DNA from: Lingula anatina
Taxonomy: Eukaryota; Animalia; Brachiopoda
DNA length: 64,000 nt
Reading direction: 5' to 3'
NCBI GenBank assembly: GCA_051362555.1
Contig: CM120644.1
Location: forward strand, 6,704,954 to 6,768,953
The position numbers were made by a program, and so were the translations under genes. Positions 32,555 to 57,008 of the stretch are shown one piece after another; position 1 is the first letter of the stretch, and each line of letters opens with the position of its first letter. The notes beneath the pieces were generated by a model that worked only from the letters and a program-made list of their open reading frames with translations, had not been told where the DNA came from and ran no database searches.

Positions 32555-35500
32555 ATGACCAGCTGCAGCATGCCTAGTCCCTCCAGTGTTGGAAAACTCA
32601 GCACAAGCCTTGAGGAGCTGTCCCTTCGCAAACAGCTCCCTCTACGGCAGCAGGCAGATAAGCCAGTGCTGAAATACAGCAGCAATTCCAAACCCATACA
32701 TCTGTATGAGAAACGAGATGCGACGGCAGTGAAGAAGGGAGGGAGCAGTCCTAGTTTGCTGCAGACAGTACCATCTGGTACCAGTGGATATGGATATACT
32801 AATCATCATGCTCATATGGTTTCTGGGCCGTTTAAGCCCAAGCCGCCTGCTGCTCCTTACTTGGCAAAGAATGCAGGTAGCAACAGCGCAGGGTCCAGTC
32901 CACTGCAGAATCGTAGTCGGTATACCTCACCGCAGCGAAGCACGCCCTCATCCTTGTCACCATCATCAGGCTCTCCTTCATCTTCATCGACAAAATTACG
33001 CAGTGATCCATACTCTCGCCCCATCAGTGCCAAAGACGTCGAGGAAAAACTGCAGCAAAGTAGCACTAATTCTGCTCTACGCAAATCATTATCTGGTTCA
33101 GCACTAAAGTCGTTAGCGATAAACAGTGGGGTCAGCGGACTGAAAGGACAGCGAGATATTGTCGTCCCCGCCAGCAATCCGCCATTGCCAAATGCATTTT
33201 TACGCCCTAAAAGTGCCTTAAAAAGTACTGAGCCCAGCAATAAGCCACCTCCGAGCCCTGTCAAGGACAGCTCTGTGAGTAAAAATAATAATGTTAATTC
33301 TTTACAAGGAAGCAGTGCCTTAGCTAAAGGAAGCACAAGGACAGAGACTGTTAAAAGTGTAGCCAAGGGGGACGGCCATCCACCAAAGCCACCCCCTGGG
33401 ACAAGGCCCCGCTCGGCCCGCCCTCCGTCTGCCATGTTGGTGGCTCGGCCGTCTAGTGCCAAAGTACGCAATCCCAACTACACTCCTGTGAAGCCATACT
33501 CGGATATCTCCAGGGAGGGTTCCAATGAGAGCATAGACTCTGGGAAAGTTAGTAATAATAGTAATAACACAGGTGGTAAGAATGGCATTGATACCAGTGA
33601 CAGTGACTCTGAGCTTAAAAGTGCTGGTGGTAGTAACAGTTCCAGTTCACTTGATAAAGCAGTGAAATTAACCCCCACCACGGAGCCTCATCTGCAGTCC
33701 AGTGGATCGGACAATGAAACTAGCGATAAAAACAACTCTGCTACCCCCATGAAGAAAATGCCAGTGACTGGCACACTTATTGATGGGACCATGTTTTATC
33801 GGAAGGATTCCCGCGAGGAACAAAAAATAGCTGACTATGGTGTTGTACGTCCAAAAGCAGAAGGTGCTCCAGCTAAAAATAGTACTGTTGAGAACTCCTC
33901 GTTGAAATCCCCAAGCAGCCAAAAGAAAGTAGTGGCTCATCCACAGAGTGGAAGATCGGTGAAGTCGACGGTATCCAGGATGTCGAGTGCTGTTGATGAT
34001 GAGGCTGATGATGGAGAGTGGGAAGACGAAGGTGAAGTGGATGATGATGATGATGATTATGACGATGGGGATTATGATGACGTAAATACCAAGTAAGTGT
34101 TTTTTTTACTGCTGCTGTAATAATATTCAATATAAGAAGACTTGGAGATTTTTTTTAATGAAATGTTATTTATTACAAGTTGTTGCAATTCATATTTCTA
34201 ATGTTTGTTACTGCTGGCAATTTTGATTTTATAAGTATTTGATGGAATGCTTTGTTATTATTATTATTGACATGTTGTTGCTGATGTTGATGATGTTATA
34301 AAATAAGTGAAACGTATCATATTATAACTAAGGCTATATTCCCAGAGCTTTTAGATCGATCTATCCCCGCGGGGAGTCTCACTAGATTACTGTCAGATAA
34401 TCCGGCTTAAATGTTCGTCCCGCCTACAACAAGCTGTAAGGGGGTAATTAACTTTCGTGTCCACCCGGCTGACAGCTATTTAGCGTGAACCCCCAGGGAG
34501 TTAGGTCGATCTTAAGTAGATCAATCTAATAAATGAAATTCAGGCACAACACATGCACTCGTAGATGAGTTAACACGTAGATGATGTTCTTAAACACTCA
34601 GTGTAGTCTCAATAACATAGGCGGTAATTCAGGTTTCTTAATGCTCTCTTCGAGAGAACTTCAGAGAAGCAAATACAGTCCCCATGTAATCCTTCCATTT
34701 AAAGTCTCGTGATTCACTTCCATATCAATAAGCTCCCACATGTCATGTAAGGGAAGGTTTATCTGTTGTACAAACCTGGTAACCAACAACGCTCAGATAA
34801 GGGCACCTTGTATTCCGACCTTTTACTCCCTTGATCGCTTTTCAATTAAGGTTTAATCTGTGCAGCCATCACACGTTGAATGTGATTACTGCCTTGGCAG
34901 TAGAAACTGTCATACTTCTCTTCTGTTGCCTAGCAGTGTTGTAATTACCTCAGACGGTATGGTATTTGTTTTTAACCCCTTGACTTGAGATCCTTAAATT
35001 TTTTTTTTAACTTTAAGTAAATTGGCTTAATTCTGTGATTTTTATGACTTCCAGCATTAGTTGTGTCCAAGTGGTTTTCTGTGTTAGGGTTAAAAGTGTC
35101 AGACTTATTTTATAATTTAGCAGGGACAGGTTTAAAAAATGAGTCTCCAAGTCTTAAATGACCAATAGTCGGTATTTGCTTTAGGACCAAAAACATGCTT
35201 TAAGACCAAAAACAATTAATTTTAGCTAAAATATTGGTCTTAAAAGTTATCCATTCTTTTCTTTTATAAAACATGGCCCATGTTACCTTGTTTGGTGAAC
35301 CACTATTTTGGGTCAGAGAAGACGAGGAATTTTGAGCTGAGAGTTGAGGTCATGACCAGCTTTCAGGTGCAAATTCTCTAACAGCACTGACCCCTGATGA
35401 TGCTTAGCCATAAATGATAAGATTTCTTTTTTTATGGATTGGACAAGGACTCTACAGATCACATTTTGATTGGCATTTAGTGGCAATAAATCATTGATAT

Positions 35501-38500
35501 CAAGACAGAGATCTTTTTCCTATTATATAATTTCTAGTGATACTAGAAAATTATTCATTTAACATGTCACAATATATTTATAGATAGAGACGGAGTTTCC
35601 TTGTATCGTGAAAGTGACTTGGGGAAATGGAGTGGTTCTAGATTAACGATGGTCTACCGACTGTTCTTGGGTTCAGATTGCGAAATAGTCATATTCTCAT
35701 ACAAGAGAAACAGTAAATGTGCCTAGCAACCAACACAGTTGCTAATCGTAGAGCCTTGGCAATTGAGGAATTCTATATACCCTGGAAATATGCCTGTTAG
35801 GTTTCTTGTTTCCGAGTCATGAAAATTGAACAGAATTGACATTGTAATTATTACACCTATACAATCTCACTCAATTATCTGAATCAATGAAGTCAATTAA
35901 CCGTGAACAATTGACAAACATAGAACCCACGGCAGGTAAATTTGTCAACGGCCCTCACATTTGCTCTCGGTTTTCATTGCAGAGACTACAGCCCACAGTA
36001 TTATGAAAGGCCCAGATGAAATTCAATAGCCCTGAGCTAATATTTACCCGCCTGATTAGGGCCTTTGAGTGTGCTTAAAAACCCCTAACATTCAACATGG
36101 AAGTGTTTTGTGAGCCATGTAAAATGAGTTAGAATAACACCTGTTGACTTGAATTCTATGCTGTTCAGAGCTTGGAAATTTGATCAGCCCCCTCCAAGAA
36201 TTGTTACTATACGGCTTTTGATATGAAAAGTTTCAGCCTTCCCCATCTCTCTCTCTCTCTCTCTCTCTCCCCCCCCCCCCCCCTCCTTTTCATTTCCTCT
36301 CATGCTTTGAACGTGCCTTGGCCTGGTCCCCTGTTGCTAAGGGTACCACCTACTTGTGCAGTTGCTTAGGGCAAACTTCAGAACTATGTACTTAGTCTGT
36401 GACACTGTGGTGTGTATATAGTAGCGTTGGGAATTGCAGGAAATTCAGATGCAAAAATCATGTATGCAATGTTATATGTTAGCACTGATTATTAGACACT
36501 TGATTTGGGAGCACAATACATGATATTTTGTTATGATATTGATGATGAAGAAATCCAAAGAAATGGTATAAAAGAGATTGAAATAAAAAAGATTTTAAAA
36601 AACTGCATGTGGTAGAGGAAAATGTGTCTTACATGATAAAAAGAGACATTGTTATAAACAATTATTGAATTATTATGTGTAGAAAGTCTTCTTAACAATT
36701 ACCAATTTCCTTTAACAGCAGTGAGCGGCTGCCTGCAGATGGGGAGTCCTTTGGAGATGACATTGATGATGATGACGATGACATGCTGGACAATCTGGAT
36801 GACGACGTCGTTGACGACAGCGACGCAGAGTCTGACACATACTCCATTGGGAGTGCAGTCTCAAAGCGATCCTCAGCCACCAGTGTCAGGAGCACGCTGC
36901 GATGCAAGTCTGCAAAAACGAGACCTGCTGCGTCGACCATTTTGCGCGAGAATGCAACTTTGAGTTCTGCAGATGTAAGGACGTTGACGACAAGACCCAA
37001 GTCTGCTGCTCTGAGAGATTACGAACTGCAGCCCGCGCTGACTGCTAGTCTGTTTAGTAACGTCCCACCTACCATTAACTTTGTGGCAGATGGAGAGAAA
37101 GGTGCTTACATGTTTGATTTTGTTTATCTTTAAAACATCTTTTTAAAGAGTCACAGAAACTGTACTTTGATGTACTATATTTCTTAAAAGTCTTTTTATT
37201 ATAAATAAGAGAAAATCCTTTCTTAGAAAATGCAGTTTTTGTCGTGAAATATTCCAATTTTGAAAGGATTGTATCTGAGTTATTTAAAATGCATTTCATA
37301 ATTTTAACATCACACTTCACTTCTTTTAGTTTATTTGAGTATTTGTATTAGTCTAGTCCATTTTTCACAAGCCACTCCTTTTAATTTTCCATAGCATACA
37401 ATTAATCATACATTTATCTATTAATTTTCCAGTTGAGTCCCTGCCTTGGGAAATTAAGAAACTCCTCAAATGGCGCCTAAGTCCTGTGACACCAAACGTT
37501 GTGAAAAACTGCATCAATCGTTCCGGTTTTAGGATCACAAAGAGTAAGTAAATAAACCTCTGTACCAACATTATATCAAATATGCATGCTAAAAATGTAA
37601 ATTATTCAAAGCATGTCTTATAATATTGTGTCATGGACATTTTTTGTTTTTGTATTAAACTCTCCGTTTGAAAGAGTTAAATGTATTTAGTTACTAGTGC
37701 ATGGTGTTTCTTGGCATAGAACGCATGCTGAATTGGATGATTTAATATTCATACAGTGCACAGTTTTAATTATTTGCTTTTGGACTTGAATTGTCGGTGA
37801 ATAGATGATTAAATTCTGACCCTGTCCATGTTGTGTTTTCCAAGATGGATTTCAATGGGTCAGTTTCATCAACACTGGACAGCACTGTCTTATGGATAAC
37901 ACTATCTATTGAGTAGAATTGTTATCCTCCAGGCAGTTATCCTGAGGATAGCAGCCATTTATAACCACTGGATAGCTATATCAGAGACAACAATATCTAG
38001 TGTACTGTGTTTGAGAAACATAACCTTACCTATTGGATAACATGCCCAGAAGATAACAATTATATCCAATGGACAATGTTATCCATATGACAATGCTATC
38101 TGGTGTTGATGACACTGGTTCCTGGCATTGTTTACCTGAGCAATTGTGTAGTAACATACTTTTTACAGACATTTTGAATCCAGAGAAAAATTTTAAAAGG
38201 GAACCTTAAAAAAAAAAGAAAGCTTAAAAAAGTTCTCTGTCAATATTTAGCACCCTACTGTCAACATTTGCCACCAGTTCTTGATGAAAGCAGTATAGGG
38301 AAGTCTTTTTATATTTAGCATTGCATAGCCTTTTTTCTTTTGCATTGCAACTTTCAACAGAAGGTAAACTGCACTGAGAATGAAGAAATGTTTTAGATGT
38401 TTTTGAACTTGTTTGTTTCTTGTTGCCTGGCAGTTTTCACTCGACCTTTGCCAGAAGCTTCATGTTTGACTCTTGAAATGTGGTGCTTTTGAAAAGATTT

Positions 38501-41500
38501 AATCAAGATTGTGTGTACTATTGGTCTATTGATAAGTTATTTTGTCATTTGAAATAGTTTCAAGTTTGGTTTGAACTTAATTATTTCAACCTTTCAGCAA
38601 GTGTGCATTAAATACATACTTCATAAAATCATGGTTTGATTTTATATTTTTTTACATTATAATTTCACACACACACACACACATTCCAAATCAAATATAT
38701 ATATAATGATAAGTGCAATATAAGTAAGTCTAATACTTGATAGTAGAAGTGTTTATACATATTATCAATTTTTATAACACTTGCTCATTAAGGCCAATTG
38801 ATTTTCCTCGATAATTGCACTTCAGTGCATTAATTCCAGTACTGCTATGATTTTATAAGTGGGATTTTGTTCAAGAAGATTGATTGAGGACTAAGTGCTA
38901 ATATGCTGTACATAAAGTGTCAAACATATTCTCACAGTTTGAAAATTAACATTGTTCTTGCTTTCACTTGAAACTAATTGTACCACCAGCGTTAGCGCTG
39001 GCGGTACACATGGTTTCGGTCCCGTCCGGATCGTTCCGCCGGCTCCGCCGGCTCCGCCGGACGGCTACCGTTACCGCTTCTCCTCCTAGACGGTAAGGGC
39101 CCCCGTACCCATCTCATGGATTTAGGTCACCTATAATCTCAACTCGTTCCACGTAAAATTTGGGCTTTGTCGGTATTGGGGTCTGGGTGTGGCACTCATT
39201 ACAATGCACCCTTGTCTAAAAATGGCAAAATTAAATGCTAATTATCTACCCTACGGAAGGAGTTATGGGAAAAATTTCTATAGACGGCTTTCCAAAAGTC
39301 ATATGTGTAGATTTCAAATATACCCTTGGATTTGACCTTTGACCTTTACTTCAAGGTCAAATGGGTCAAAATTTTCAAAAAAATGAAATTTTTTACGAAA
39401 AAAATTTTTTTTGCCCTGTTATTCAGACACTACACACACTTAACCAATAATATTATTGGAAAGTGTTACCCTTCAGGTCATCTTTCATCTCCATGAATTT
39501 GGGGTCAATCGGTGCATTTTCACGGGAGTAGCGGCCATAAGATACCGAAACTGAAAACTGTCTCTAATTCGGGAACCGTTAATGCTAGAGACCCATTCTT
39601 TTTTGCATATTGTAGAGCATGTAAAGCCCAACACTGGATGTGGTCTTGGTTTTTTTGTATTCCATACGGTTTTCGAGTTATGCTGTATCAAAAAGTACAT
39701 ATTGGTGGTAAAAGCAAAATGTGCAGTACGGTAATGGATAATAAATTTTGAACTCTGGAAAAATAAAACATAAGGCTTGGCAAAGCAGACAACTTGTGTT
39801 CAAAAATGACATTATTTCATCAAATTTGAACTTCTGAAACTTCAGAGCACCTCCTATTTCAAGAATTTTGACCAAAGTGACATTTTCTTTATTTTAATTA
39901 ATTTTTTCTGTACGCAATTTAAGGCACATTATGGTAACTCCAAAATTATAACATTTAGTCCCTTATATCTCCAAAACTGGCAGAGATAGGTCCATAGTTA
40001 CTATTGAACTTGAATAGGAAGTCATATACTGGCAATATAAATGTGACCTTAAAATTGACCTTTGACCTACTTTTCACCATGAACTGAACTTTGCAAATTT
40101 TGCTTTCCTTTTATCTCCAAAACTGGCAGAGATAGGTCCATAGTTACTATTGAACTTGAATAGGAAGTCATATACTGGCAATCTAAATGTGACCTTAAAA
40201 TTGACTTTTGACCTACTTTTCACCATAAACTGAACTTTGCAAATTTTGCTTCCCTTTTATCTCCAAAACTGGCAGAGATAGGTCCATAGTTACTATTGAA
40301 CTTGATAAAAAAAGTCATATGCTGGCAATCTAAATGTGACCTTGAAATTGACCTTTGACCTACTTTTCACCATGAATTGAACTTTGCAAATTTTGCTTTC
40401 CTTTTATCTCCAAAACTGGCAGAGATAGGTCCATAGTTACTATTAAACTTGAATAGGAAGTCATATACTGGCAATCTATATGTGACCTTAAAATTGACCT
40501 TTGACCTACTTTTCACCATGAACTGAACTTTGCAAATTTTGCTTCCCTTTTATCTCCAAAACTGGCTGAGATAGGTCCGTAGTTACTATTGAACTTGAAT
40601 AGAAAGTCATATACTGGCAATCTAAATGTGACCTTGAAATTGACCTTTGACCTACTTTTCACCATGAATTGAACTTTGCAAATTTTGCTTTCCTTTTATC
40701 TCCAAAACTGGCAGAGATAGGTCCGTAGTTACTATTGAACTTGAATAGGAAGTCATATACTGGCAATCTATATGTGACCTTAAAATTGACCTTTGACCTA
40801 CTTTTCACCATGAACTGAACTTTGCAAATTTTTCTTCCCTTTTATCTCCAAAACTGGCAGAGATAGGTCCATAGTTACTATTGAACTTGAATAGGAAGTC
40901 ATAAACTGGCAATCTAAATGTGACCTTAAAATTGACCTTTGACCTACTTTTCACCATGAACTGAACTTTGTAAATTTTTCTTTCCTTTTATCTCCAAAAC
41001 TGGCAGAGATAGGTCCATAGTTACTATTGAACTTGAATAGGAAGTCATATACTGGCAATATAAATGTGACATTAAAATTGACCTTTGACCTACTTTTCAC
41101 CATAAACTGAACTTTGCACATTTTGCTTCCCTTTTATCTCCAAAACTGGCAGAGATAGGTCCATAGTTACTATTGAACTTGAATAGGAAGTCATATACTG
41201 GCAATATAAATGTGACCTTAAAATTGACCTTTGACCTACTTTTCACCATGAACTGAACTTTGCAAATTTTGCTTTCCTTTTATCTCCAAAACTGGCAGAG
41301 ATAGGTCCATAGTTACTATTGAACTTGAATAGGAAGTCATATACTGGCAATCTAAATGTGACCTTAAAATTGACCTTTGACCTACTTTTCACCATAAACT
41401 GAACTTTGCAAATTTTGCTTCCCTTTTATCTCCAAAACTGGCAGAGATAGGTCCATAGTTACTATTGAACTTGAATAGGAAGTCATATACTGGCAATCTA

Positions 41501-44500
41501 ATTGTGACCTTAAAATTGACTTTTGACCTACTTTTCACCATGAACTGAACTTTGCAAATTTTGATTTCCTTTTATATCCAAAACTATCAGAGATATGTCC
41601 ATAGTTACTATTGAACTTGATAAGAAAGTCATATACTGGCAATCTAAATGTGACCTTGATATTGACCTTTGACCTACTTTTCACCATGAACTGAATTTTG
41701 CAAATTTTGCTTCCCTTTTATCTCCAAAACTGGCAGAGATAGGTCCATAGTTACTAATGAACTTGAATAGGAAGTCCTATACTGGCAATCTAAGTGTGAC
41801 CTTGAAATTAACCTTTGACCTACTTTTTATCATGAAGTGAACTCTGCTAATTTCTTTCTCTTTTAACTTCAAACTTGACAGAGATAGGTCCATAGTTACT
41901 CTTGAACTTGAATAGGAAGTCATATACTGGCAATTTACTGTGACCTTGAAATTGACCCTTGACCTATCTTACAAAGAACTTAAATTTGGTTGTACCATAT
42001 ATATTTTTTGCAATAGTTTAAAAATTCTTGTTGATTGCATTTTTACAGCTTGTCAAGCACAAAACTGGTGGCTGTGTCCCTTATTTTGTGTATGTGGGGG
42101 TCTATACGAATGCGCTTGCTCCAGCTGGTGGTACAATATTCGGAGGCGGTATCGCCTCTCTGATCCTCTAGTTTTAGATCAAAATTGGTAAGGTTAGACA
42201 TTGGAAAACTGCCTGCCAGACAGGTCATGACTGCTTGAAAGGATTTTTGCAGGTCCTCTAGACTGGCAAGGGTTATGTGAAAATAGAATACATGATAATA
42301 AATCATGTAAACATAGATTAATAAAAATAAAGTACTTAGTTTAGACCATGACAGAATTGTTAGAACCTGCAGATTTTTTGTAGTGCATGTTCTCCAGACC
42401 TTCGATATGCCACAAGTTTTCCCCATGTCTGTCTTAAAGACACATGATTTTGAAAGAATTTTGTGTACCATGATTTAGATTACTGGTACTGTTAAAGTGC
42501 TTGATATCCTGTTGATATTCAATTAAATTTTTTTATTTTTTGCCTTTTTTTAGAAAATCATGATTGGCTAGGTTGCTGGGGGAAGCATATGAAGGCCAAT
42601 GCATTCCGAGCCATCAGAGAGTATCAGAAAGTAAGATATATTACACAAATAACAAATGTCAGAGAGTATCAGAAATCAAGATCTGCAAATATTTGACAAA
42701 TAAGTTAGCAATTATTGTGGTATTTTGTCAACTGATGTTTTTTGAAAAAATTGAGAATTTCTGAAATGAAAGTCATATTATGTTTGATATATAGCGTGTT
42801 GATCTTGCTAATCAGTGTTGTGTACACGATAAAAGAAAGTGGATAATAAACACAGAAAGATGGGTTTGAATGCACAGGATACAATAATGCATAATTAATC
42901 AAGTGAAATTTGCATTTGTTCTCTTATTTCCTCTCTCTAGCTCAACCACTTTCCCGGATCATTCCAAATTGGCCGCAAGGATCGTCTCTGGCGCAATCTG
43001 TCCCGATTACAGGTGCATTTTGGGAGAAGAGAGTTTGGCTTTTTTCCGCAGACGTTTGTCCTGCCTTATGACATGAAACTGCTGAAGAGAGCATGGGAAG
43101 ATGGAGGGTCCAAACAAAAGTGGATTATTAAACCAGTGAGTAGGGATTGATAATTAACAAATAAGATGACATGTGAATGATAAGTTATAAGTTCTTCATT
43201 TAAAATTGAAATTATGTAAAATGAGTAATATTGGAATATTTTGAACAGACTTTGGACAGTTTGAACAGAATTTGGATATTTTAAATCGAATTTTAGAAAT
43301 TAAAATTTTTGTCTCTTGCAGCCTGCGTCTGCCCGTGGAATTGGAATCAAAGTGATCCACAAGTGGAACCAAGTGCCAAAGAGGAGGCCGGTTATTGTAC
43401 AGAAGTAGGTGTTCAGTACTGATCCACTGAATAGAGAGCATATTTTAATGACACATTTCTGGGTCTGGTTTTACATATTTGGTGGTGATTTGTAGACTAC
43501 ACTGGTTGGTTTTTACTTTGACTTGAGGTGCATTTTATGTAGTAAAGTCTTTAAATGACATCAAGAAAATATACATAAATTATACATTATTTCAGCTGTA
43601 TGTCTTTTCAATAAGTTTATAAAGATTATAAGACATCCACTTTATTTATCTTACTGGACTTATTCAACTATATACATTTCCATAATCCAATACACCTTCC
43701 TTTATTTCCATGTACTTGTCTATGCAGTAAGAAGTGTTGAACTCTGTACATATCCTTAATCCTTGTATTCTCAGGTACTTATCCAGGCCATACTTGATCA
43801 ATGAGAGTAAGTTTGATCTGAGGATCTATGTGTATGTGACCAGTCTGGACCCACTGAGACTGTACGTCTTCCAGGACGGACTGGTCAGATTTGCCTCCAT
43901 GAAGTAAGTGCACCATTCTGTCTTATAAATAGATACTTCTGATAGTTTTTACTATCTCTCTCTTTCTTTTTTCCTTTAATTTTTTTTTTTTAATTTTTAC
44001 ATGAATAAATGAATATATAACAAAAGCATAATCTCATGTATTAAACAATATAATACTATTAGGCAGTATCATTAAAAAAAAAAAGAAAAAAAAGGATAAT
44101 GAAATACAATATAAAAATATTCTGCGTGCAGGAGTAAAATATATTCAATTTGATTAGAAGACAGAGTAATATATATTTATCTTCTTCAGATACTCTAGCT
44201 CAATGAAGAACTTGAACAACAAATACATGCACTTAACCAACTACAGCATTAACAAGAAGAACTCTGGCTACCAAGCTAATGGGGATGACACTGTGTGTCA
44301 AGGACATAAATGGTAAGACCAGTAATTCTGTCATTTCATGGATACCTGGTTTACTGCTACAGCAGTGTGATTTTTGATATTTGGACAGTTATCCAAGAAA
44401 TAATTTGTATGAGGGAAAACAATTTAAATAAAGTGAAATGAAGTGAAAGATTACAAAAAAGACATTTTTGACAAAATATGTATCTCCATTCCAGATTTTA

Positions 44501-47500
44501 TTTAAACAGACAATACTTCAGAGTATTTATGGGGAAAATGGGCTTTTTCCCAATATAATGAAAACTTTTAATGAAATATTTCATATGACTATATGACTTT
44601 TTTTTTCTGTAGTAGAATGTGACTTTACACTGTTACCTTATTCTGTTTTTACCTCTGCCAGCTATATAATCAATGCATTTTGTATATCTTCCAGGTCACT
44701 GAAGTCTCTGTGGGGATATCTTCAGAAGAAAGGGGTCAACTATGGCCCTATCTGGGAGAGCATCAAGGATCTAGTCATTAAAACTATTGTCTGGTTAGTT
44801 GAATCATATTAGAATATTTTTTATGAATGTCCTAAAGCAGAACCAACTTAGGACCATACTCCATATACATTTCTTTTTCATAACATAATGACACCTGTAG
44901 TGAATTTATTATTGGCTATTTTACATTTTTTAAATTCAGTTTCAACTGCGCAACCAAATAATACATTATGTAATTGGTTCTATACTAGTAATTATTTTTA
45001 AATCCACTACCAAATTTCAGTCTTAATTGCTTACTAGTAGTTAAAAAATATTTAATATTTTTAAACAATTAAACTCCATACACATATATTGTCTTGCCCT
45101 GCCTGATGTAGTATTGTATTGTATTGCATTGTAATTGCACTGTATTGTTGTGTATTGTGCTGTATTCTATTCTACAGTGCTGAGGCCCCTATGAACAGCC
45201 TGGTGAAGTCAAACTGTCAGAGCACCTACTCTGTCCATGAGCTGTTTGGCTTTGATGTCATGTTGGATGAACAGTTGAAACCCTGGATACTGGAGGTTAA
45301 CATATCCCCCAGGTCAGTGAACTAAAACAGGTGTTTAAAAATGGATTAAATGCAATCTTTGGTTTAAAAGATTACTCTATGTTGACATATACAACAGTTA
45401 AGGGAACTCAAACAGGTGTTTGGAAATGGAGAAAAACTGATAAAAAGATGAAAAAGAGCATAGCAAATAGATGAGTAAAGTTGAAGCAGTGTTTGAAAAA
45501 GGAGAACCCTTTGAGCAAAAGACTCCTAACCACCCTTTAAAATGATTGTGAGATTTTCCAACATATACTGAATGTTGAGGGTTAACCCATCCCTTTGGCA
45601 AATAAAGTTGAACAGGTCTGTGAAATTTTTAAAAAAATCTAATTATAATGTTATCCTGTAAGAGCTACACAAAAATCTTAAATGTATTATAATATAACAA
45701 ACCTAATGTATCTCTCCAGCCTCCACTCTAACTCTCAGCTGGACATGAACGTCAAGGGTCAGATGATCAAGGACCTCCACAACTTGGCTGGGTTCCAAAT
45801 CCCAGACAAGAATGACGTGGTGCAAAATCCTTCTGCTCCCGCAGAAACAAGGTATTACTTAAAAAAAAAAAGATACATTGCATATTCACATATTAAGCAT
45901 AATGCCTTCCTAACCAAAGGAAATAAGGGCAAGAAGACAATTACACAATATGTTCTTATTCTTTGAGGAAAATCATACGTCATGCAATAAGGTAACAGAG
46001 TTTAGTGGGCAGTCTGTTTCCAGTTCAGTTGCTCATGTCTGTAAGTATAACAGTTTCAGCAGAGATTTATATTATAATAGATTTATTTAGTAAATACATT
46101 TTATGATGTCTTTTTGTTGCAGCAATATCAAAGTGCCTAGTGAACTGATCATGGACAAGAGATTGTTCACACAGAATATGGCTCCTGATGAACGAGCCAA
46201 GCATGCCTACTACTGCCAGAAATACCAGGATGATGTGAGTGGAACAGTTAATTTTTCTTTTAATTTTGTTATTTGCTTTATTATTACATTCTTCTTCATG
46301 CATAAACAAGCACAACTTTGCAAAAAAAAAACAATTCAGCTTGAAAACTATTTTGTAATGATATCATGTAAAAATGCAAGGCATATGCTTCTTCATTTAT
46401 TTGTTCATTTTGAGAGCAAGAGAAGCAAATTTATAGTCAATATAGTATTGCTAGCAAAAGTTGATATGTAAATTGTGAGTGGCTGATCTATGGACATTTT
46501 AATAATCATGATTTTTTATATTTTTCATCAGCAAATCCAGCAAACTGTGCTTGACACGCTGACGCCAGATGACATCCGTGTCTTGATAGCTACAGTAGAT
46601 GAGGACTCCAGGAAGGGGGGCTTTGAGAGGGTGTTTCCCACTGCCAAATCCAGCAAATATCTCAAGTTCTTTGAGCAGCCAAGGTATGGTTGAGAATTTT
46701 GGAAACTTGGAAACTGTTCTGTAACATTTATTGTTGGGCATGTGCTGTATATTTATGTAAAAGTGAATGTTTTGAAATTTTTGGACGAATTTGGTTAATA
46801 TCCTTGGAAGGATGGATAATTTTGATGTCATGAAAAAATTTTGGATGAACCTTGTTATATCATATTTAAAGTTCAACAAGTTTTCCATTTTGTATTGCTC
46901 TTTGAGTTCAGAGAGCAGTCAAGAATATTAAGAACAGTTCTGAAATATATTACATAGCTAATTGTGACCATTTCAAATCAGTCAGTTTGAAAAATATTCA
47001 AATCCAACCCTAGGTACTACAACCTGTTGTTAAACCAGTGGGTTCAGAGGTATAACAAGATGGAGGCAAGGGGCGTGGCACTCCTGGATTCCTTCTGTCA
47101 GAAATGGGTCCATGTGCAAAGTCCAACTACAGATCCTTATCACCAGGTATGTAAGAGGGGAATCCCCTTTTCTCTTGGATAGAATAGTGATGATAAAGTG
47201 AATGAACAGTACTACACTGTCTTTTCATGGACAATCTTTACTGTCAGTGCTTACATGACTGAAACTGGCATTTCACTAGTTGAATTGTTTTGTCAACCTT
47301 TTGGTTTTGGTACATATGCTTTAAATATTAGGAAAAAAATTAGGAAGAAACTGGAAACAAGCCAGATCTCTTTTGGTAAAGGGGTGGGGGGGAGTTGCTA
47401 ACTGGAAAAAAAGTGGAGATATTGCTTTAATGCCAGTAACTTTGTGTTTGCATATTAAATCTGTAGTCTTTCCTCAGGTTTTACAATAAAAATAATGTAT

Positions 47501-48022
47501 TTTCTTTCAGTGGAGTCCTCCAAATGCCACCCCTCGCACACTGAGTGCTCCGTCTAGCAAACCAGGAGTAGGGAACTCAAGGTGAGTCTCTTCATATAGA
47601 CTGGACTTCACTTTTATAAAGGGGGGAGGAGAAGAAAAAGAACTCTCAAGATGTTATAACCAATTTGTATCTTTTCATACTTAATTTGTGTATACTAAGA
47701 ACTTAAAATGAATAATATATATTAGTAAGTGAATGAAGGATACGTGTTTTATAATTAAGTAAATGAATAAATAGATAATTGAATACATGCTATAAAAAGG
47801 CATTTGAGGAAAAAGAGCAGATGATAATTTGGATAATTATATCAGAAAATTCGGATCAAAATTTCACCAGTTACTTGTTTCCATTGCAGTTCAACATCCC
47901 AGCTGCCAAAACTACGCAAGAAGAACAACAAGCCAATTCAGAAAATGTCCCACTCAGGAAGTGCGTCATCACTGGATAAGTACATGATGCCATCCAACCC
48001 ACCGTCCAAACAAAACAGATGA
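32555..48022 (+). CDS. TTLL4: Tubulin glutamylase TTLL4 (~1201 aa to the first TGA), 16 coding exons
   Basis: Exons 32555-34092, 36719-37101, 37433-37543, 42554-42630, 42941-43135, 43322-43404, 43775-43903, 44190-44312, 44695-44793, 45178-45312, 45720-45851, 46123-46234, 46532-46683, 47014-47146, 47511-47581, 47890-48022, all GT-AG and phase-compatible. TTL motifs DWLGCWGKHMK, NHFPGSFQIGRKDRLWRNL, KPPASARGIGI, KFDLRIYV, GLVRFA, HLTNYSINK, ELFGFDVMLD, LEVNISPSL. Confidence 0.95.
34332..34530 (-). mobile_element. PIF/Harbinger MITE, subfamily B, one end truncated
   Basis: Reverse complement of 62678-62892; TAA at the left flank. Confidence 0.8.
37858..38120. mobile_element. Old palindromic MITE
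   Basis: ~43-bp imperfect TIRs cagtttcatcaacactggacagcactgtcttatggataac / gttatccatatgacaatgctatctggtgttgatgacactg, with internal ggata/tatcc motifs. Confidence 0.65.
38976..42172 (+). mobile_element. Non-autonomous Helentron-type element (HINE/DINE-1-like) in TTLL4 intron 3
   Basis: 5' subTIR ttgtaccaccagc with adjacent IR gctggcggtaca, (ccggctccg)n microrepeat, central satellite, 3' subTIR gctggtggtacaa (42124-42136), hairpin gaggcg-gtat-cgcctc, end CTAG followed by TTTT. Confidence 0.88.
39960..41970. repeat. 146-bp satellite array, ~13-14 units
   Basis: atctccaaaactggcagagataggtcc recurs with period 146 (e.g. 40113, 40259). Same family as 16715-17480, in the opposite orientation. Confidence 0.97.
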
Positions 48023-48856
48023 GGCCTTCCCCGTCTACCACCATTGAAGGAACTTTTAGAAGCTTCGGATATTACATTTTTTGGCCAGCAGAGTAGTAAT
48101 AGTAGTAGTAGCATTCGACTTCACCTTACACCTGGCGAGAGTTTGAAGCAGCAGCGTAACTCTATATCAGACTGGATGAAGAAGGTACGAGAGTCTATTG
48201 GAGAGTTGCCAGATTCCTTAGCAACCAAGGAGAACCTAATCGACACTGGTGATGTCAGTGTTGAAGAAGATAGCATTCCTCCTTTAACTTTGCCATTGAA
48301 TTTGAAGGAATCCTCAAACGCTGTCACAGGGACTTCGCCGTCATTCCTGGAAGCAGTGACACAGAAACGTGCCAACTCTGTCAGCTTGGCAATAGCTCGA
48401 AGGGGTTTGCTCCCTAAGAGTGGTAACAGCGCCACCTTGCGGGAACATGCACGTCTCACCAGCGTCAGTCGTGTTGGGCTGCGTGACCTTGACAGCAGTC
48501 TGTCTCAGTACAAGAAGGCGTCATGGTCTCAGTCCAGTACCTCGGATTCAGCCGTCTTCACGATGTCAGGTGCAGAGTCAGAGGCACTCGATAACAGGCC
48601 TGCAGCTAGAAGAGGAGGAAGACCTCGGCCCTCCTCCTATAAGATTCAGGGCCATTCCAGCTTCAACAGCAAGGATTACACAGGTCCCATAGGGTCAAAT
48701 ATTATACCTGTGTGGAGAGAGACACTGCAGATCATGCGGCGCCATAGTTCTCCCCAAGGTAGCAAGCTGCTCGCCAGAGCTCAAGTGTACTCTGTGGCCG
48801 AAGTTCAGAATCTCAACGACATAGGACAACCATCTTCTTTTCACGCGCACAAATAA
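48023..48856 (+). CDS. 277-codon in-frame C-terminal extension of TTLL4 beyond a single TGA (candidate recoding or alternative splice product)
   Basis: Same frame as exon 16 (...KQNR-TGA-GLPRLPPLKELLEASD...FHAHK-TAA). Ser-rich like the TTLL4 N-terminus, and GC-richer than the flanking introns and UTR. Confidence 0.6.
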   Translation, partial: GLPRLPPLKELLEASDITFFGQQSSNSSSSIRLHLTPGESLKQQRNSISDWMKKVRESIGELPDSLATKENLIDTGDVSVEEDSIPPLTLPLNLKESSNAVTGTSPSFLEAVTQKRANSVSLAIARRGLLPKSGNSATLREHARLTSVSRVGLRDLDSSLSQYKKASWSQSSTSDSAVFTMSGAESEALDNRPAARRGGRPRPSSYKIQGHSSFNSKDYTGPIGSNIIPVWRETLQIMRRHSSPQGSKLLARAQVYSVAEVQNLNDIGQPSSFHAHK

Positions 48857-48880
48857 ATAAGAACTGCCCAATCAAGCTAG

Positions 48881-48950
48881 TATTCCATTGCTTCGTGACA
48901 CGTTTCCATTAACGCCGAAAAGGCAGGAATGCTGATCATGTAATAAGCAT
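48881..48950 (+). promoter_or_regulatory. Candidate SECIS-like RNA element
   Basis: GTGA(48895-98)-N12-AA(48911-12)-N21-GA(48934-35) with apical mini-stem GCC-GAAAA-GGC. Helix II is only ~6 bp and competing pairings exist. Confidence 0.35.
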
Positions 48951-51535
48951 TCTGAGTGGTCATTTTTGATGACTAAAACGTAAACTGATTGGACAGTTTT
49001 TCAGGTCTCCTCTGTGATAGTAGTGTAATATGTAGTACTGGCACCATTCACACTGAATTTATTGTGCTGTTAGTATAGAGTTATTGTAGTTAGTCAATTA
49101 GCGTGCTTACATCAAAAGACCATATCATCAGTATTACAGTCCCCCCCCCAGTGATGGATTAGGTTTTGAAATAGAGACCAATCACCTTGGCCCCCATGTG
49201 ATATAAAATTATTTTTTCAAGTAATATGAGGCCAAGGGATGTCTTTATGCAACCTAAAAGTCTGTTTAAACGCAGCCATTAGAGTGGATTGCTAACGCAA
49301 GTGGCACATAGTTACTGGGTAGTGTCAGTCATGTTACTGCTCCAGGTAATAAATACATCAAGGTAATGCCGATGATTACAATGAAATTCATGTCTAATGG
49401 ACTGAGTTAATTGCCTGTTGTGCACCTTATGTATGGGCTGCCAAAGGGTATGTGGGGGGTGTCAGATCTCGTTCATGTCTCACTCTTTTTCTTTACACCC
49501 ACATTTCTGTGCCTTTTACTAACAGTTTCACTTTCACTTTCACTTTGCATGGAAATGCAAGCAAGTCAGCTGATTCAGAGAAGTATATGCAACATTGATA
49601 TAATTCTAATAGTAGTTAGGATTAACATTTACTGAAAGTATTTATTTTTATGCAAAAAGTCAACATGTATGTGACTGTTATTTCCTATCATGTAGACGTG
49701 GTGGTTATATTATAATGGAACTGAGTTATGTACTTTACTGAACACTAGGGATTTATATATTTTATATAAAACTTAAATGCCTAGGTGATATATTACATTC
49801 CAGGCACTATAAGCCATTTATGATTAATAATTTATAGACATGTATCTAATTTAAAGGCAAAATGACATGAATGCAGTATATAACAATACTAATCATATCT
49901 TATTGTTTTCAAAATGGATGTTTTACTACAAGTCTGGGGTACATATGGAGTATTTAGGAAGAACATTGAGATAAAAAGTACCTACAAATTACAAAAGGTA
50001 TCATCTATCCCATTTTCATGACCAAGTTCCATGGCTAGTTATTTATTTTTTGGTTTCTTTTTCATAAAAGTGTTGTAAAAATAAGATTTTTTCACAATAC
50101 TTTAAATCATTACTTGTTATGGAAACCCACATGTTATCACAAATTTTCACTCAATCACATCATTTACTAACATCAGTTTCATGTTTTTTGTGTGTCACAG
50201 TAGCATGACCATTAGAATTCAAGAGAAAGAGAACCTCTCAAAAATCAAAATGGATAAAATGTGAAGCTAAAATTTCTGTTCCTTAAAATTGTAATGGGGT
50301 AGGCGGGGATTTGTTGGGTCTGATAGTTTCTAAATTTTGAGAATTGTGCCTTGTACAATGTTTCTTATGACCGTTTTGACTGCAGAGACATCTATAGGAA
50401 ACATCTGAAGACCCCTTTTTCAAAAATTGGAAACTTTCAGAACAACTCAAAATTCAAACATGATTTGTCTAGTCAGGTTTTGTTTTGTTTGATAGTGATT
50501 TTTTTTTTGTTTGTTTTGACCGATTTTGTTTTTAAAAAATGCTCAGAGTGATGCATGTACTGTAGCTTTTTGTTTGTTGTTAAGTTTGTCTTCGTGTTTA
50601 TGTCCTGAAAGTTTAAGTGTTGATGTGCATGAATAATACTAGGGTAAATACTTTTTGTTGAAAAGTAAGGCTTAAAAATTCTGTTGTTATGCTCTTATGC
50701 AACTGAAAAAATACAACTATTTATATCATGTGTTCATACGAAATTTATATTTTTCTACTAAACACTAACTACTACATAGCCCACTGAGAATTTTAAGATT
50801 GGATAAATTTCAACTAACACAATAGGTTGTGCTACATACGAAATGCCATGGAGTCGAATCAAATTTAACATTGCTCAAGGAATGTAAAAAGAAAAAAAAA
50901 TGGTTATGCAAGTTTGTTTGCCAGTATTGTACATATTTTCTTGTCAATTACTGACATTGGCTGTGCCAATTTCTTTCAAATTGAAATAAATTTTCAGATT
51001 GAGTGAAAGAGAAACCAGTGGTTTACTTCTTTATTTAATAGAGCAATTTTTAAACGGGTTGAAAAATTAATTTGTGAAAATTAACGCTACAGTAAGTTAT
51101 ATGAAGTATGGTTTTGGCCTGCTGCACTTCTCTACTCAAAAATAAAATGATCAGCTTTGAAATTTGTGTTAGATGCAGCAATGCACAGTCTGGCTTACTT
51201 TGTCAAGAACAAGCCTAATGAAGGGAGTGTACGTAGCAGAGAACCTCTCTCCAAGGGTTGAATGCTGTAAAGTTCAACTTGTGAAATGCGGCATGTTGAT
51301 GTTCTGGAGATAATACACAGAGTTAAACTCACAAAGTCTTTCTCACTTTTTATTCCGTTTCATTCTTAATAACATTTGGAACTTCAAGCCATCTTTGGGA
51401 AAATGTTTGAAAACTCTTTTCTTGGAATGTGGAACATTTAGATGGACATCTTTTGAAAGATATTTAAATACTGTTGATAGATGTTTGAATATATACTTTG
51501 GATTTTGTTTAATAAAACTAATTAAATATATTGGA

Positions 51536-54500
51536 CTAAGAACCATCTTTTGGTAGATGTTTGAACACTGTTGACTCCATATCTTTTCTTGGTTGTGTTG
51601 GTGGCTTCATTTGCTTCATCATAAGGCGCCCATAATCTGACCCCTGAATTCCTGCCTCGCGCAATTTTTGCTCTAATCTCACTCTAGGGTCTGACGCAAC
51701 CTGGAGAAGATAGTTTTATATTTTAATTGTGACATGATTGTGCTCATGATTTACACAATATCTTGACTAATTATCCAGTGTGGTTTCCAAAATTAGCAAA
51801 TCTTGATCTCAGTCTTGGCTCTGATGTGATTTGGAAAAAACAGTTACTCGATCTACAATAAAAAAAGATGGCAAAAAAACTTAACTGTGGTTTCCAAAAT
51901 AAGCAAATTTTAGTCTCACTCTTTCATACCTCTTTTTTTTTCACTTCAAAATTATTTTGACAATAACTCATAAACAGTGGGTTACCTGATTTGCTGAAAA
52001 GCCAAGCATCTTGAAGAGAGGTTTCTGAATATTGATGTCTTCATCCCCTGTTACTCTACTGTGCCACGCCTGAGATAAAAAAGACAAATAAAAAGCAAAA
52101 AAATCATTAAATCAGGTATTTACCACAGTGCATTATTAGTTTCATTTAAATAAATTATAATTAATGGACATTTAAGCAAACAATTAGCGTTGATTACACA
52201 CTTTTATGGTTAAAATTCATAGCTTTCAAAATTTCTGTCAAAAACTAAAATTAATCAGAACAAAAAAAGAAATTTTCCAGCATCCATTGGAGAGTGGGTT
52301 GGGGAAGGCAGGAAAAGAGAACAGGAACAGGGTGTAAGTTAATATAAAATTATCACCTACCTCAGTGTCATTCCATATCCTCTCAGGATCACTGGCCACC
52401 ACAGGACGCACCTTGAAAATAAAATAATTATTACTTTAGTCTACTCTTTAAGATTGCAAAAGTCAATATAAAATTCTCTGGCTTTTCCTTAAAAAGAAAC
52501 AAAGGGAGGGGTTTGGTTTTCCTCCAAATTAGTAAAGAAAAGATTAAAACAGTTAGCTGAACAAAATGAGCAAAATGTCAGATTCTTTCATTTATTATAA
52601 TGAGTGAGTTATTCAATCTAGTAAGTATTTGTACACCTTGAAATAACTGTGTATAAATATATTTCAAATCTTTTACAAAATAACTTCCTAATCAAATTCT
52701 TATTTTCGCTTTAGAACCAACCTTTTCCCTGAGAGCCTCCAATCTCTGTTCCCTCTCCTCCTCATCTCTCAGCCTGTCCTGCTCCTTCTCATACTTAGCT
52801 ATTTCTTTCTTAAATATCTGCTCCTCACGGAACTTAACTCTAGAAGAGAAAAATTTATAACCGTTTTATTTCAAAATGATTAAACCTAAATTATTTTGGG
52901 GTGAAACACTGGCTCTTTTGGTCAGGAGGTTGCCATAACAACAACAACAACAACAACAACATCAACAACAAAAGATAAGTTCTGTATTATATTTCAACAT
53001 GCCATACCTTTCTTTATCATGTACTGCTTGTTCTTGTAGAATTTTCTTCAACTCTTCCATTCTTTTTTGTTCGTCCTCCCTTCTCTTTCTCTGTTCTTCT
53101 TCTTGCTGTATGTGGTACTTGTTCAGCTGAAATGGCACCATAAAATATATACTGTATAAAAAAAAATCAACATAAAGTAATTAGAAAGAAAAGATTAATC
53201 ACTAAGCCAAAAGCAAAATACAGCTGTAATCTCTTTACATAATTGTTGTATAGAAATACCAAAGCACAGCTTATAAATAACTTTGAAATTCTTTTAAACT
53301 GTATTTGTCATTAATCAACCTTAGTCAACTCTTTACATGCAAATGAAATAAAACATTCTTCTTTCTAAATCTTAAAATTCCGTCAAACCTTTTCCTTTTG
53401 CTCTTGTCGTTTCTTCTTCTCTTTTTCTTCTTCTATTTTCATCAGTTCCTCCTGTTCTTTCCTCTTCCTCTCTTCCTCCTGTTGTTCCAGCCACATCAGC
53501 TCCATCTTCTGTTCCCTCCAACGCTGCACCTAACACGACGAGTGGAAAACAAGAAAAGGTCTACTATTCTTATTTGAACATTTCCCCAAAACATGCTTCG
53601 TAGGTCTACATATCCTGCAAAGCTTCTAATCTTTCCAATTTCAGACCTTAAAAACTATCCCCCCCCCCCCCTAAAATAAAAGAACACTGTGAGTGGAAAA
53701 CAAGAAAAGGTCTACTATTCTAATTTGAACATTTCCCCAAAACATGTTTTCTTAGTCTACATATCCTGCAAAGCTACTAATCTTTCCAAATTCAGCCCTT
53801 AAATCTATAAATCCCCTCTAACATAACTACCTGCACTTAAATGGTATACTGTGAGAGTGGAAAAAAAAATTGGCAAGTAATACCTACATCTCAGACACAT
53901 TAACTTTGTCTTTTTCACACTCACACCCACAGAGTAACTCACCTTGTCATAGAGAACATCACAAAGCTCTTTCTGCTTCTGCTTGAACTCGTTTTTCACC
54001 TCCTCCAATTCCTGGGCCATGCAAACTTCGGCAAAGGTGGCGCTGGCCTTGGTGAGCAGCTCCTTCCTGTCCCGCAACCAGTCCAGCATCAGAGCTTTCT
54101 TCCTGTCATGGTAATATTTGTGTCTTGTACACCAATCTTCATGATCAACCTGACACACAAAGTAGAAGCTATTTTACCAATTGAGGGTTGTTTAAGTAGT
54201 TGCTGAAAGGAACTTTGTTACCACTTTGTTACCTATCCACATGAATGATAAACAAACATCTATGTGTCTAATGAAGTGATCTCGATTTTTTTACCAAATC
54301 TCCACAGTTAAAAAGAGGTGCAAGGGAATTATGCATGGTTTAAAATAGCAAGAAGAAAATAAAACAAACACACAGTTTTAAGTGTAAATTCTTATGTAAT
54401 CTGAGTACTCCTAAAAATGAAAAATAAAAAATAATCATCTTAAAAATGTTTAAATACAGTTTAAACAAAATAACAATAATCCTTACCAGTTCTTGTCTAG

Positions 54501-57008
54501 ATTTCCCAGGAAAATGTCTCTTCAGTCTGTCTATGTACAGCATTCTTCTGTTGGTCATGTCATGGGGGTATTGCTCTACTATAACTTGGAACAGATAATG
54601 ATCCTCCTCACTCCAACCTCCCCTCTCTGACCTATAAGTATACAGCTTTAATAATAATAAGAACAACAACAACAGTAATAATAATAATAATAATTTATTG
54701 GGTCTCAGATGAGTAGGATTGACCAAGGTAAAAGTTTAGTTTTTTTTTTTTTTTATTAAAAAACACCTGATATCCTTAATCAATAAAATCAGCTGACTTA
54801 ACAATCTATATTCAAACCAAAAACACAGGGGAAGGAGGATCCAAAATATCACCCCCACCTCCCTACCCCCCCCCCCCCCCAACCCCACCCTCCTCGATAT
54901 CCTAGAATCACCAGTATGTATGGACATATAATTTTGTAATCCAACTCAATTAATGCAGCCAAATCCTTTTATCCACAGGAATCAACTGTAACAACAATTT
55001 TACCCTAAAACCTGTGCGTGTTCCTGCTCCAGGTCCTCCAGCCTGGCCCTGTGCTGTTCATCTAGGAGGATAAACTCCTGGAGGACCGAGGCTTTCAGGT
55101 CAAGGTCAGGGCACTCCAGTTCAAAGGCCTCCATGGGGATCCCTCCTTGCACCTTCCTCTCATGGGTGTGGCACAGTTCTGCCAGCTCACCTGAAAGATT
55201 GAGATAAAGTTAATATTTATATGATTTGTAATATACTGTTATTGTAGAAAAAAAAAAGGATGGGGATGTTTACCCTCTTAACATTTTTGTGTAACTGGCC
55301 TTCAATAAATATAGTAAATTTATTATTGTTATTATATGTAAAAATTATGACAATTTGACTAACTGTTGTAGGGTCTCAGTTAAAAAGAATGTTGTCGGGT
55401 CTCAGTTAAAAGAGAAGAAAAATAATAGACTATCGTTATGGTAATAACTTTGGAATGAACTATCCCCAAGGGGATTCTCGCTTAATTGCAATTAACTTGG
55501 GTGGTTTAGATGTCTGTCACACTTGCTGAGGCTGATAGAGAGTACTTAACTATCACTTAGCAGCTTTAGTGGGTGTCCCAGATGTATAAGTCTTAAGACG
55601 CTGGGGCTGAAAGCAGTTTAGCGAGGGACCCATGTAGATGGACCAATCCTGTTAGATCGAACTAGTGATGGCAACCCAGTCTAAGTATATATGCGAAATG
55701 CAACTCCATTGGCATAAATTCCTGGTGGTTTTGCTAAAAATCCATTTTTGTCCCAAGTTGTTTTACAAAGCATGCAACCCACACACCCCCTGCCTCTTCC
55801 ACCTACCTGAGGACAACTCCTGCTCCAGTGACAGCTGTTCATTGAGTAATTTCTCCAGTACTAGCTCCTGCTGGCTATTAACAGAGGCCACAGTTTCTAG
55901 AATTGCCTTGCGCTCTTCCAGGACCGACTCATCGTCTTCTTTGGTGTCATTCTGGTGCTCTACCACCCAGTATTTTAAGTCTTCCCTGTTGTTATGTGTA
56001 AATAAATAAAATAATCAATCAATTAATTATTAAATTAATGCACCAAGAAATCAAAAAGTGAAAGAACAAATGTTACAGTAAAACAAATGAAAAACATTTA
56101 AATTAACAAGAGAAAGATAAAAGAGTTTTAAAACTTTCAAATTTTTAAAATACAGTTCAACTTAACGCACTATTTGATAAAAAAAAAATTGATGAAAAAA
56201 TCTGTCATACACACCTGAGATTCCAGACTGGCTCAACCGTGTCAGTTTTAAAGTGATTGAAATCATTTACTATACTGGACTCATAGTCTTCAAAGTCCTG
56301 AAAGCTATGTGAACACACTGCTCCATCCTCTGCATTCTGCCTTATAAATGCTTCCATCTCAACCTGAAGTCTTTTCCTGGCATTGTTTAGCCTTATGAAT
56401 TCCTTCTGCCAAGCCAGTTTATGCTGCTTTATCAAGTTCTGATCCTTGTGCTCTTTGGAAGCCTGTTGGATCTTCTTGATTTTAAGAAGAGACTTGTGTG
56501 CTGCCATCTTTTTCACTGTCGCCAGGGTTTTAAGCTGTTCATAGTCCATGGCTCTATAGGTGGTGGTTTTGAAACCCTCAGTAAAACGTCTGACATATTT
56601 GTCTATTAAAAAAATGATGCATCCAATTACAAGCTGAATAAAGATTTACCTTAAGTGTCTTATTACACTTTTAATTTAATATTTTTAATCTTTACTTTCG
56701 TGTATCTGAAAACATATTTTTTTCTTTGAATGTGTATTTTTTTAATTTAGTATTATTTTCAAATTTGTACTGTACCTCTGAAAATTGTTATGTCTTCTTC
56801 TCACATTTGATTATCATAGACATTGACCAATAGGCATGATGATGCTAATTCTGTTTAATACTCATGGTATTATTATTGTTGTTGTTGTTACAAGGAACAT
56901 GAATTTAATGTTAGTACCTTCTTCTTTTATCTTTTCCTTTGGAAAACCAGCCAGCTGGCTTTCTGTGCGATGGTTGGTCAGAAATGTCTTGTAATCTCTT
57001 CCACTCAT
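51536..57008 (-). CDS. CCDC148: Coiled-coil domain-containing protein 148 (~624 aa), 12 coding exons
   Basis: Exons 57008-56918, 56602-56215, 55985-55807, 55190-55004, 54631-54487, 54149-53943, 53529-53389, 53126-53008, 52839-52722, 52411-52361, 52069-51986, 51700-51536, all GT-AG and phase-compatible. Recognised from DYEQLK..IKQHKLAWQKE, LECPDLDLK, GGWSEEDH..YPHD, DPRVRLEQKLREAG..PRKDMESTVF. Confidence 0.88.
53540..53802. repeat. Local ~110-bp direct duplication in a CCDC148 intron
   Basis: gagtggaaaacaagaaaaggtctactattct...tctacatatcctgcaaagct occurs at ~53540 and ~53691. Confidence 0.85.
55427..55665 (-). mobile_element. Diverged longer relative of the Harbinger MITE family
   Basis: Approximate reverse complement of ~60880-61140; shares ctatcccc..gggga, tttagcg and tagatcga motifs with the young MITEs. 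Confidence 0.55.

Follow-up and report, generated by a model that had tools for sequence, protein, structure and literature searches.

Functional stop codon readthrough has been well mapped only in insects and in a few vertebrate genes. In tests of 52 species, Jungreis et al. 2016 (PMC5100048) found readthrough to be abundant only in Pancrustacea. The readthrough genes of Drosophila and Anopheles (PMC5100048; PMC13278127) possess an in-frame coding second ORF, a conserved UGA, a long 3′ UTR, raised GC and a disorder-prone extension, and cell-specific readthrough has been described in Drosophila (PMC13278127). In mammals, OPRL1, OPRK1, AQP4 and MAPK10 carry the context UGA-CUA(G), and UGA-CUA is by itself sufficient for 1.5% readthrough in human cells (PMC4132726). 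The FVa/EFLGa neuropeptide precursor of Platynereis (PMC3890597), a lophotrochozoan, contains a coding region past its stop that has no start Met, and cell-specific readthrough was proposed there. As regards TTLL4, initiating glutamylase activity is known for the mammalian enzyme, a tubulin monoglutamylase and initiator (PMC10404701), and the available part of a preprint on Drosophila SCR lists TTLL4A as a non-conserved 21-nt candidate of tier 4, the lowest, at a TAG (PMC13278127). In the literature searched, which covered few subscription papers, Platynereis was the sole relevant case of readthrough for Lophotrochozoa, brachiopods, molluscs or annelids. The same literature, with the same coverage, yielded no report of readthrough in TTLL4 or TTLL genes, and TTLL4 names are absent from the supplements of PMC5100048 that were searched (two of three).

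The TTLL4 gene in the 64,000-nt stretch of DNA analysed here (the window) shares with the Drosophila and Anopheles genes the in-frame coding second ORF, the conserved UGA, the long 3′ UTR, the raised GC and the disorder-prone extension, but those sets belong to Pancrustacea, whereas the window gene is lophotrochozoan and has a G at +4. The UGA-CUA of the mammalian genes recurs in the TTLL4 of two related forms, L007 and L008, whereas the window itself has UGA-GGC, and its 277 codons compare with an extension of 13 in MAPK10. The gene resembles the Platynereis precursor in belonging to a lophotrochozoan and in having a coding region past the stop with no start Met; that precursor, however, yields short secreted peptides with antibody evidence, whereas TTLL4 would carry a long tail on a cytoskeletal enzyme and the evidence is evolutionary only. 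Compared with the described monoglutamylase (PMC10404701), the first ORF of the window gene encodes a complete TTLL4 that includes the TTL domain and has the C-terminal end typical of this enzyme. We consider it probable that the gene undergoes functional UGA readthrough, giving TTLL4 isoforms of 1201 and 1479 residues. If true, a selected extension on one gene in two distant lophotrochozoan lineages would mean conserved readthrough in a third animal clade, and the tubulin code would gain a new layer, in which one glutamylase gene gives two enzymes via recoding.

The TTLL4 gene and its first stop

On the plus strand, a 16-exon GT-AG model of TTLL4 extends from 32506 to 48856 in a single frame with one internal stop (Table 1), and the ATG at 32555 was taken as the presumed start codon. 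An out-of-frame ATG 39 nt upstream of this likely start opens a short upstream ORF (window 32516-32554), and the long intron 3 holds a tandem array at 39961-41966 (146-nt unit, 13.7 copies, 93% alike). Exon 5 shows 75-91% identity to TTLL4 proteins, and PF03133 (TTL domain) is present in all 120 of the exon 5 matches listed, most of the named ones being TTLL4. The TTL domain of the window is most similar to that of TTLL4, the tree having been built with TTLL4 sequences, and by this similarity the gene qualifies as a putative TTLL4 glutamylase. Two trees place the window protein among lophotrochozoans (annelid, nemertean and mollusc sequences; support 98/96 and 100/98), and they do not settle the phylum of the window protein or of L007. 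The first-pass annotation had exon 15 splicing in phase 2 to the acceptor at 47889, and this is borne out by raw RNA reads (four runs from three studies, 6-25% of each run read, joints requiring at least three reads), in which the joints 47146 to 47511 and 47581 to 47890 occur in seven reads each, the latter in two of the four runs. Its coordinates, i.e. a TGA at 48020-22 and the same frame open to a TAA at 48854-56, all hold, as do its sizes of about 1201 and 1479 aa; the short form counts 1201 residues and the long form would have 1479.

Table 1 Coordinates of the features discussed (positions in the window)
Feature	Position	Strand	Remarks
TTLL4 short-form coding region	32555..48022	+	1201 aa, 16 modelled exons, first in-frame ATG to TGA
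Exon 14	47014..47146	+	phase-0 donor; only listed joint goes to 47511 (7 raw reads)
Exon 15, 71 nt	47511..47581	+	phase-2 donor; joint to 47890 in 7 raw reads
Last exon before stop, 43 codons	47890..48019	+	LPKL-basic motif common to relatives
Donor-like site of 99-nt intron (donor 47961)	47958..47966	+	score 7.8; not conserved
First stop TGA	48020..48022	+	context AGA-TGA-GGC; likely read through in part
In-frame extension, 277 codons	48023..48853	+	Ser-rich, without Cys, no confident predicted fold
RLPP, codons 4-7 after stop	48032..48043	+	L007 and L008 have these residues at an equal distance
Best in-frame acceptor-like site near stop	48071..48088	+	phase 0, first exon base 48089, score 4.1; no joint listed
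First ATG of extension (codon 52)	48176..48178	+	constraint already present upstream
Second stop TAA	48854..48856	+	overlapped by AATAAA (48852-48857)
Long 3′ UTR	48857..50900	+	read cover on one strand, last acceptor to about 50900

The TGA lies at the position at which annotated TTLL4 orthologues end. Following PRYYN, the short form of the window has 113 residues, and the corresponding counts are 110 in Tubulanus, 112 in Owenia, 127 in Aplysia and 131 in Patella. Since the stop lies at the normal end of TTLL4, the question is why code follows it, not why a stop interrupts the gene. The presence of the TGA in other individuals, raised in the first-pass annotation, is supported by contigs of four further runs from four studies, all of which bridge the codon with no change at 48020-22 among the variants listed (40 of 83; 31 of the 33 changes in X10, 1 of 3 in X6, 4 of 10 in X8 and 2 of 8 in X9), and a nonsense allele, or a change of the TGA in X6, X8 or X9, could sit among the other 43 of the 83. 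The bridging X10 contig shows 33 differences from the window in 595 bases (about 5.5%), 31 of which are listed. Changes common to all four runs with respect to the window are listed at 48099, 48320, 48650 and 48689, with none at the stop; an error or a private allele in the window would have produced such a change in all four runs, and both are therefore unlikely. The stop codon is TGA also in L006-L010, the five related loci that reach it. The orthologous end, the four runs and these loci together point to an old stop, as described for readthrough genes in PMC5100048.

An assembly error or a recent nonsense change, which would make the extension a relic of a longer gene, would account for the long open frame without a recoding signal, and both a nonsense allele and an assembly error were among the alternatives suggested at first. 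We regard this explanation as extremely improbable, because changes shared by all runs are listed at four other positions and not at 48020-22, the stop lies at the orthologous end and is a TGA in L006-L010, and selection is still acting between the window and X10. Two of the data sets, X10 and X18, are labelled as the window's species yet are markedly diverged from it, X10 showing 5.5% divergence in its coding sequence; of 43 X18 reads, none is 99% alike to the window, which together with X10 hints at cryptic lineages.

The contigs of X6 and X8 have loose ends before 47888 that correspond to the 3′ end of exon 15, and they cross the TGA unbroken. From these loose ends we infer that both sets represent spliced transcripts, although an automatic guess had assigned them to DNA. 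It is conceivable that a splice form lacking the TGA exists at a low level or in certain tissues and that the extension is an alternative last exon, reached either from exon 14 (phase 0) to an acceptor before 48089 or from the donor at 47961 to a phase-1 acceptor. Such a form could draw on the in-phase acceptor-like site 66 nt past the stop (4.1) and on the donor-like site (7.8), both scored with a splice-site matrix built from TTLL4's own introns; bivalve TTLL4 genes have many annotated isoforms, and the RNA depth is low. However, no joint skipping the TGA is listed in the four raw-read runs (joints of at least three reads; depth 1.0-1.9 per run at 48010-48160), nor is there a loose end skipping it in the two spliced contig sets, where contigs drop rare forms. 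Acceptor-grade AGs are also common in exons, the score of 4.1 being matched by 12 AG sites per 2982 bases of real exons (4 per 1000), and the donor is degraded to 2.6 by the X10 change at 47965, with which the +5 G is lost, and to 5.4 by the X12 change at 47959. We therefore consider a splice form of this kind unlikely. The specific 99-nt intron 47961-48059 proposed in the first-pass annotation is weakened by the degraded X10 donor, by its acceptor score of 0.8 and by the spliced contigs, which cross the intron unbroken.

Coding selection past the stop

The chance of 277 open codons is 1e-6 given the extension's own base composition and 7e-8 given the stop rate in the two other forward frames, and its GC is 0.50 compared with 0.33 in the UTR behind it. 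The extension does outstrip the ORFs of the neighbouring introns and UTR, as had been claimed from the sequence at the outset; longer ORFs exist elsewhere in the window. The 36 changes listed in the extension comprise 20 synonymous, 16 non-synonymous and 0 nonsense changes, and are distributed over codon positions 1, 2 and 3 as 10/3/23. When transitions are weighted from 1 to 4, omega is 0.26-0.34 (about 0.3) and P lies between 4e-5 and 7e-4, and the stretch 48023-48448 alone, which is almost fully listed, gives 16 synonymous to 11 non-synonymous changes (P 7e-5 to 1e-3). Read in the other forward frames, the same changes would be counted as 8/28/0 and 2/30/4 (synonymous, non-synonymous and nonsense, respectively). 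The sole indel in the listed pieces of the extension is a 3-nt insertion, which is in frame but lies inside a short AGT repeat. The pattern of changes confirms, at the level of sequence comparison, that the extension evolves under coding selection in the frame of TTLL4. The second ORF thus shows, in the frame of TTLL4, the coding signature that characterises a readthrough gene in PMC5100048.

The alignments of X6, X8 and X10 to the window break at 48872-76, i.e. 16-20 bases past the second stop. In the X10 loose end past the break, 7 of 30 letters differ after a one-base shift made by hand, a biased rate, as the site is set by the break itself. The AATAAA that overlaps the second stop could yield an mRNA with a short UTR, and no poly(A) loose end is listed there.

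Although the changes are few, constraint appears to begin right at the stop. The first 66 nt after it contain two changes, both synonymous, and the 153 nt ahead of the first ATG contain five, four of which are at third positions (small numbers in both cases); X10 carries a synonymous change within RLPP (48040). The density of changes is 3.0-3.4% just after the stop, 3.8% in the coding sequence before it and 8.1% behind the ATG. The code-like character of the window codons from the stop to the candidate AG, where two of two changes are synonymous, and the position of RLPP ahead of every candidate acceptor argue further against a splice form that skips the TGA.

The extension could alternatively be a separate ORF, translated from the ATG at 48176 by reinitiation or from a promoter of its own. 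The in-frame ATG at codon 52 would give a protein of 226 aa, and the density of changes is higher past the ATG, 8.1% compared with about 3.2% (Fisher P 0.06). This explanation is nevertheless very unlikely, in view of the better conservation of the stretch before the ATG, the lack of any Met in the entire extensions of L007 and L008 and the depth of the X6 contig, a weak measure, which is not raised behind the ATG. Constraint before codon 52 and the Met-free extensions of L007 and L008 exclude a downstream ATG as the source of the coding signature. Coding on the opposite strand is likewise excluded, as the antisense frames of the extension contain 9-16 stops each (9 in the frame that shares third positions), stranded reads lie on one strand and the minus-strand neighbour ends near 51540. 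A minus-strand ORF of 127 codons at 48121-48504 was rejected as a shadow of the plus frame. Single-sequence structure prediction of the extension gave a mean pLDDT of 41 and is uninformative, and kinase and SxIP-type motifs in the extension are not enriched compared with shuffles (P 0.23-1.0).

Homologue searches and related loci

No homologue of the extension was found among 5665 candidates of 486-2000 aa or among 1755 candidates of 152-485 aa, and no match among 1.84 billion representatives at E 0.001. The extension has no match in Pfam, in the Atlas (best 0.78) or in the first 120 TTLL4 proteins listed (best E 0.53); RLPP[LV] occurs in 0 of 185 fetched TTLL4 proteins, and 113 pattern matches to the extension in metagenome contigs left 0 confirmed. 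These blank searches carry little weight, since annotation treats a readthrough tail as UTR and ends proteins at the first stop, and a long TTLL4 form would be hidden from protein databases in the same way. Literature linking the LPPL motif with cilia and microtubules was not found.

Scanning of metagenome contigs with the exon-14 alignment gave 171 pattern matches, which reduce to 10 loci; five of these reach the last-exon stop, and the other five, L001-L005, apparently stop short of the last exon. The last exon of TTLL4 starts at the same position in L007, L008 and L009 as in the window. The two related forms L007 and L008 contain the same phase-2 last exon, followed by AGC-TGA-CTA and then by 123 and 121 open codons, respectively. 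Their extensions are 79% identical over 121 codons (dS 0.87, dN 0.11, omega 0.13), with two whole-codon gaps and no Met, and the flanking intron and UTR do not align. The extensions start with L(K/T)LRLPPV in L007 and L008 and with GLPRLPPL in the window, which places RLPP at codons 4-7 in each of them. When the first ten codons of the window extension are scored against those of L007 and L008, the values are matched by 78 of 29,636 and 88 of 30,170 other window pairs; beyond RLPP, the tails resemble that of the window weakly (L008, 9 of 2000 shuffles; L007, 170 of 2000). L007 shares 53% identity with the window across 279 C-terminal-domain residues and stands apart from it in the tree. We take L007 and L008 as independent support for the proposed readthrough, as they present the same layout in a distant lophotrochozoan, behind a classic leaky context. 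A phase-0 AG 57 nt past the stop is common to L007 and L008 and would suit the splice form considered above, but the two sequences show only 7 differences over these 57 nt, where intron and UTR do not align.

In the remaining loci that reach the stop, no comparable extension is present. L006 ends at its TGA, and L009 and L010, which come from one animal and group with molluscs, have TGA-CGG-TGA and no extension. The TGA-CGG-TGA of L009 (2237-2266) and L010 (2978-3007) is followed by a second short ORF and may be a lost or doubled readthrough site; UGA-CGG is a leaky viral context (PMC4132726). In L007, the acidic end of the extension is repeated as degenerate copies past the second stop (4040-4260), and exon pieces around PRYYN and HQW occur in tandem in L005 (1217-2568) and L007 (2318-3330).

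Proposed decoding of the UGA and neighbouring genes

The stop context of the window is UGA-GGC; the +4 base is G, as the first-pass annotation had pointed out, and the leaky UGA-C is absent, whereas UGA-CUA is present in L007 and L008. None of the segments starting behind the stop folds better than shuffles (z +0.6 to +1.7), and a stimulatory stem was thus not found there. The SECIS element reported at first was found neither by Rfam nor by a pattern scan. The first-pass annotation had held that the +4 G makes a cis element necessary, and these searches revealed none. In 47800-52500, Rfam gave seven matches up to E 10 with no SECIS family, and in L007 and L008, whose UTRs are short in the contigs, it also gave no SECIS; the pattern scan, run without a positive control, gave 0 sites compared with 0.49 in shuffles. 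No Cys or Sec aligns to the UGA, as annotated homologues end there and the related loci keep the TGA. Selenocysteine decoding of the UGA, directed by a SECIS in the 3′ UTR, would agree with a UGA stop in the window and in all five related loci that reach it, and with the length of the 3′ UTR. It is highly improbable, however, given that no SECIS was found in the window or in L007 and L008, that no Cys is aligned, that annotated orthologues end at this position and that the UGA-CUA of L007 and L008 is a near-cognate readthrough signal. Two TTLL4 isoforms made by readthrough or by selenocysteine insertion had been proposed from the sequence at first: the readthrough part gains from the in-frame selection, the stop at the orthologous end and the TGA-CTA extension in a distant animal, and the selenocysteine part loses for want of a SECIS and an aligned Cys. 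By the exclusion steps given in PMC5100048, the gene passes with respect to the age of the stop, a downstream ATG, the opposite strand and SECIS.

We infer readthrough from the stop and the frame, their presence in spliced transcripts, the selection on the extension and the same layout in a distant animal, and we propose the following mechanism. The majority of ribosomes would terminate at the UGA and produce the 1201-aa TTLL4, while a fraction likely decodes the UGA via a near-cognate tRNA and runs to the TAA, giving the 1479-residue isoform. Near-cognate tRNAs at UGA insert Trp, Cys or Arg. The long isoform would combine an unchanged catalytic domain with a Ser-rich tail that is predicted to be disordered. 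The UGA-G context and the lack of a detected stem suggest that readthrough is likely controlled by trans factors in some cell types and not by a local stem. The tail, with RLPP conserved at its start, may serve for docking or localisation and thereby direct some of the enzyme to different microtubules or binding partners. As conservation across lineages is confined to the beginning of the tail, its most likely function seems to be that of a flexible arm bearing a short docking motif. The pair of contexts, UGA-CUA in L007 and L008 and UGA-GGC in the window, would bear on how readthrough survives the loss of the canonical signal. In a wider view, which we find quite possible but would put forward only tentatively, TTLL4 readthrough may be an ancient lophotrochozoan switch, older than the split of lineages whose C-terminal domains are 53% identical, that supplies this writer of the tubulin code in an additional version, whose tail begins with the RLPP segment. 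In the window it would persist at a non-canonical UGA-G via a trans-acting and probably cell-type-specific mechanism, and it could be the first visible sign of programmed readthrough that has gone unrecognised in molluscs, worms and related animals.

Several neighbouring features were observed on the minus strand of the window. From about 51540 to 57320, a coiled-coil gene of several exons is arranged tail to tail with TTLL4, and the 3′ UTRs of the two genes may overlap; three pieces of this gene gave no Pfam match, and we presume a resemblance to CCDC148. A tandem cluster of near-identical two-part cytochrome P450 genes, given as four, occupies 3938-29693, with long ORFs at 3938-5089, 13046-14197 and 20688-21839 and first parts at 7504-8115, 15502-16077 and 29124-29693. 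As the ORF list contains three of the long parts and three of the first parts, the copy number of four is approximate, and Pfam p450 was found in the one tested. Between the two parts of one of these P450 genes, an LTR-retrotransposon-like element at 23421-28597 encodes a gag-like ORF of 343 codons and a pol ORF of 1393 codons (protease, RT, RNase H and integrase), which overlap by 37 nt in the -1 frame.
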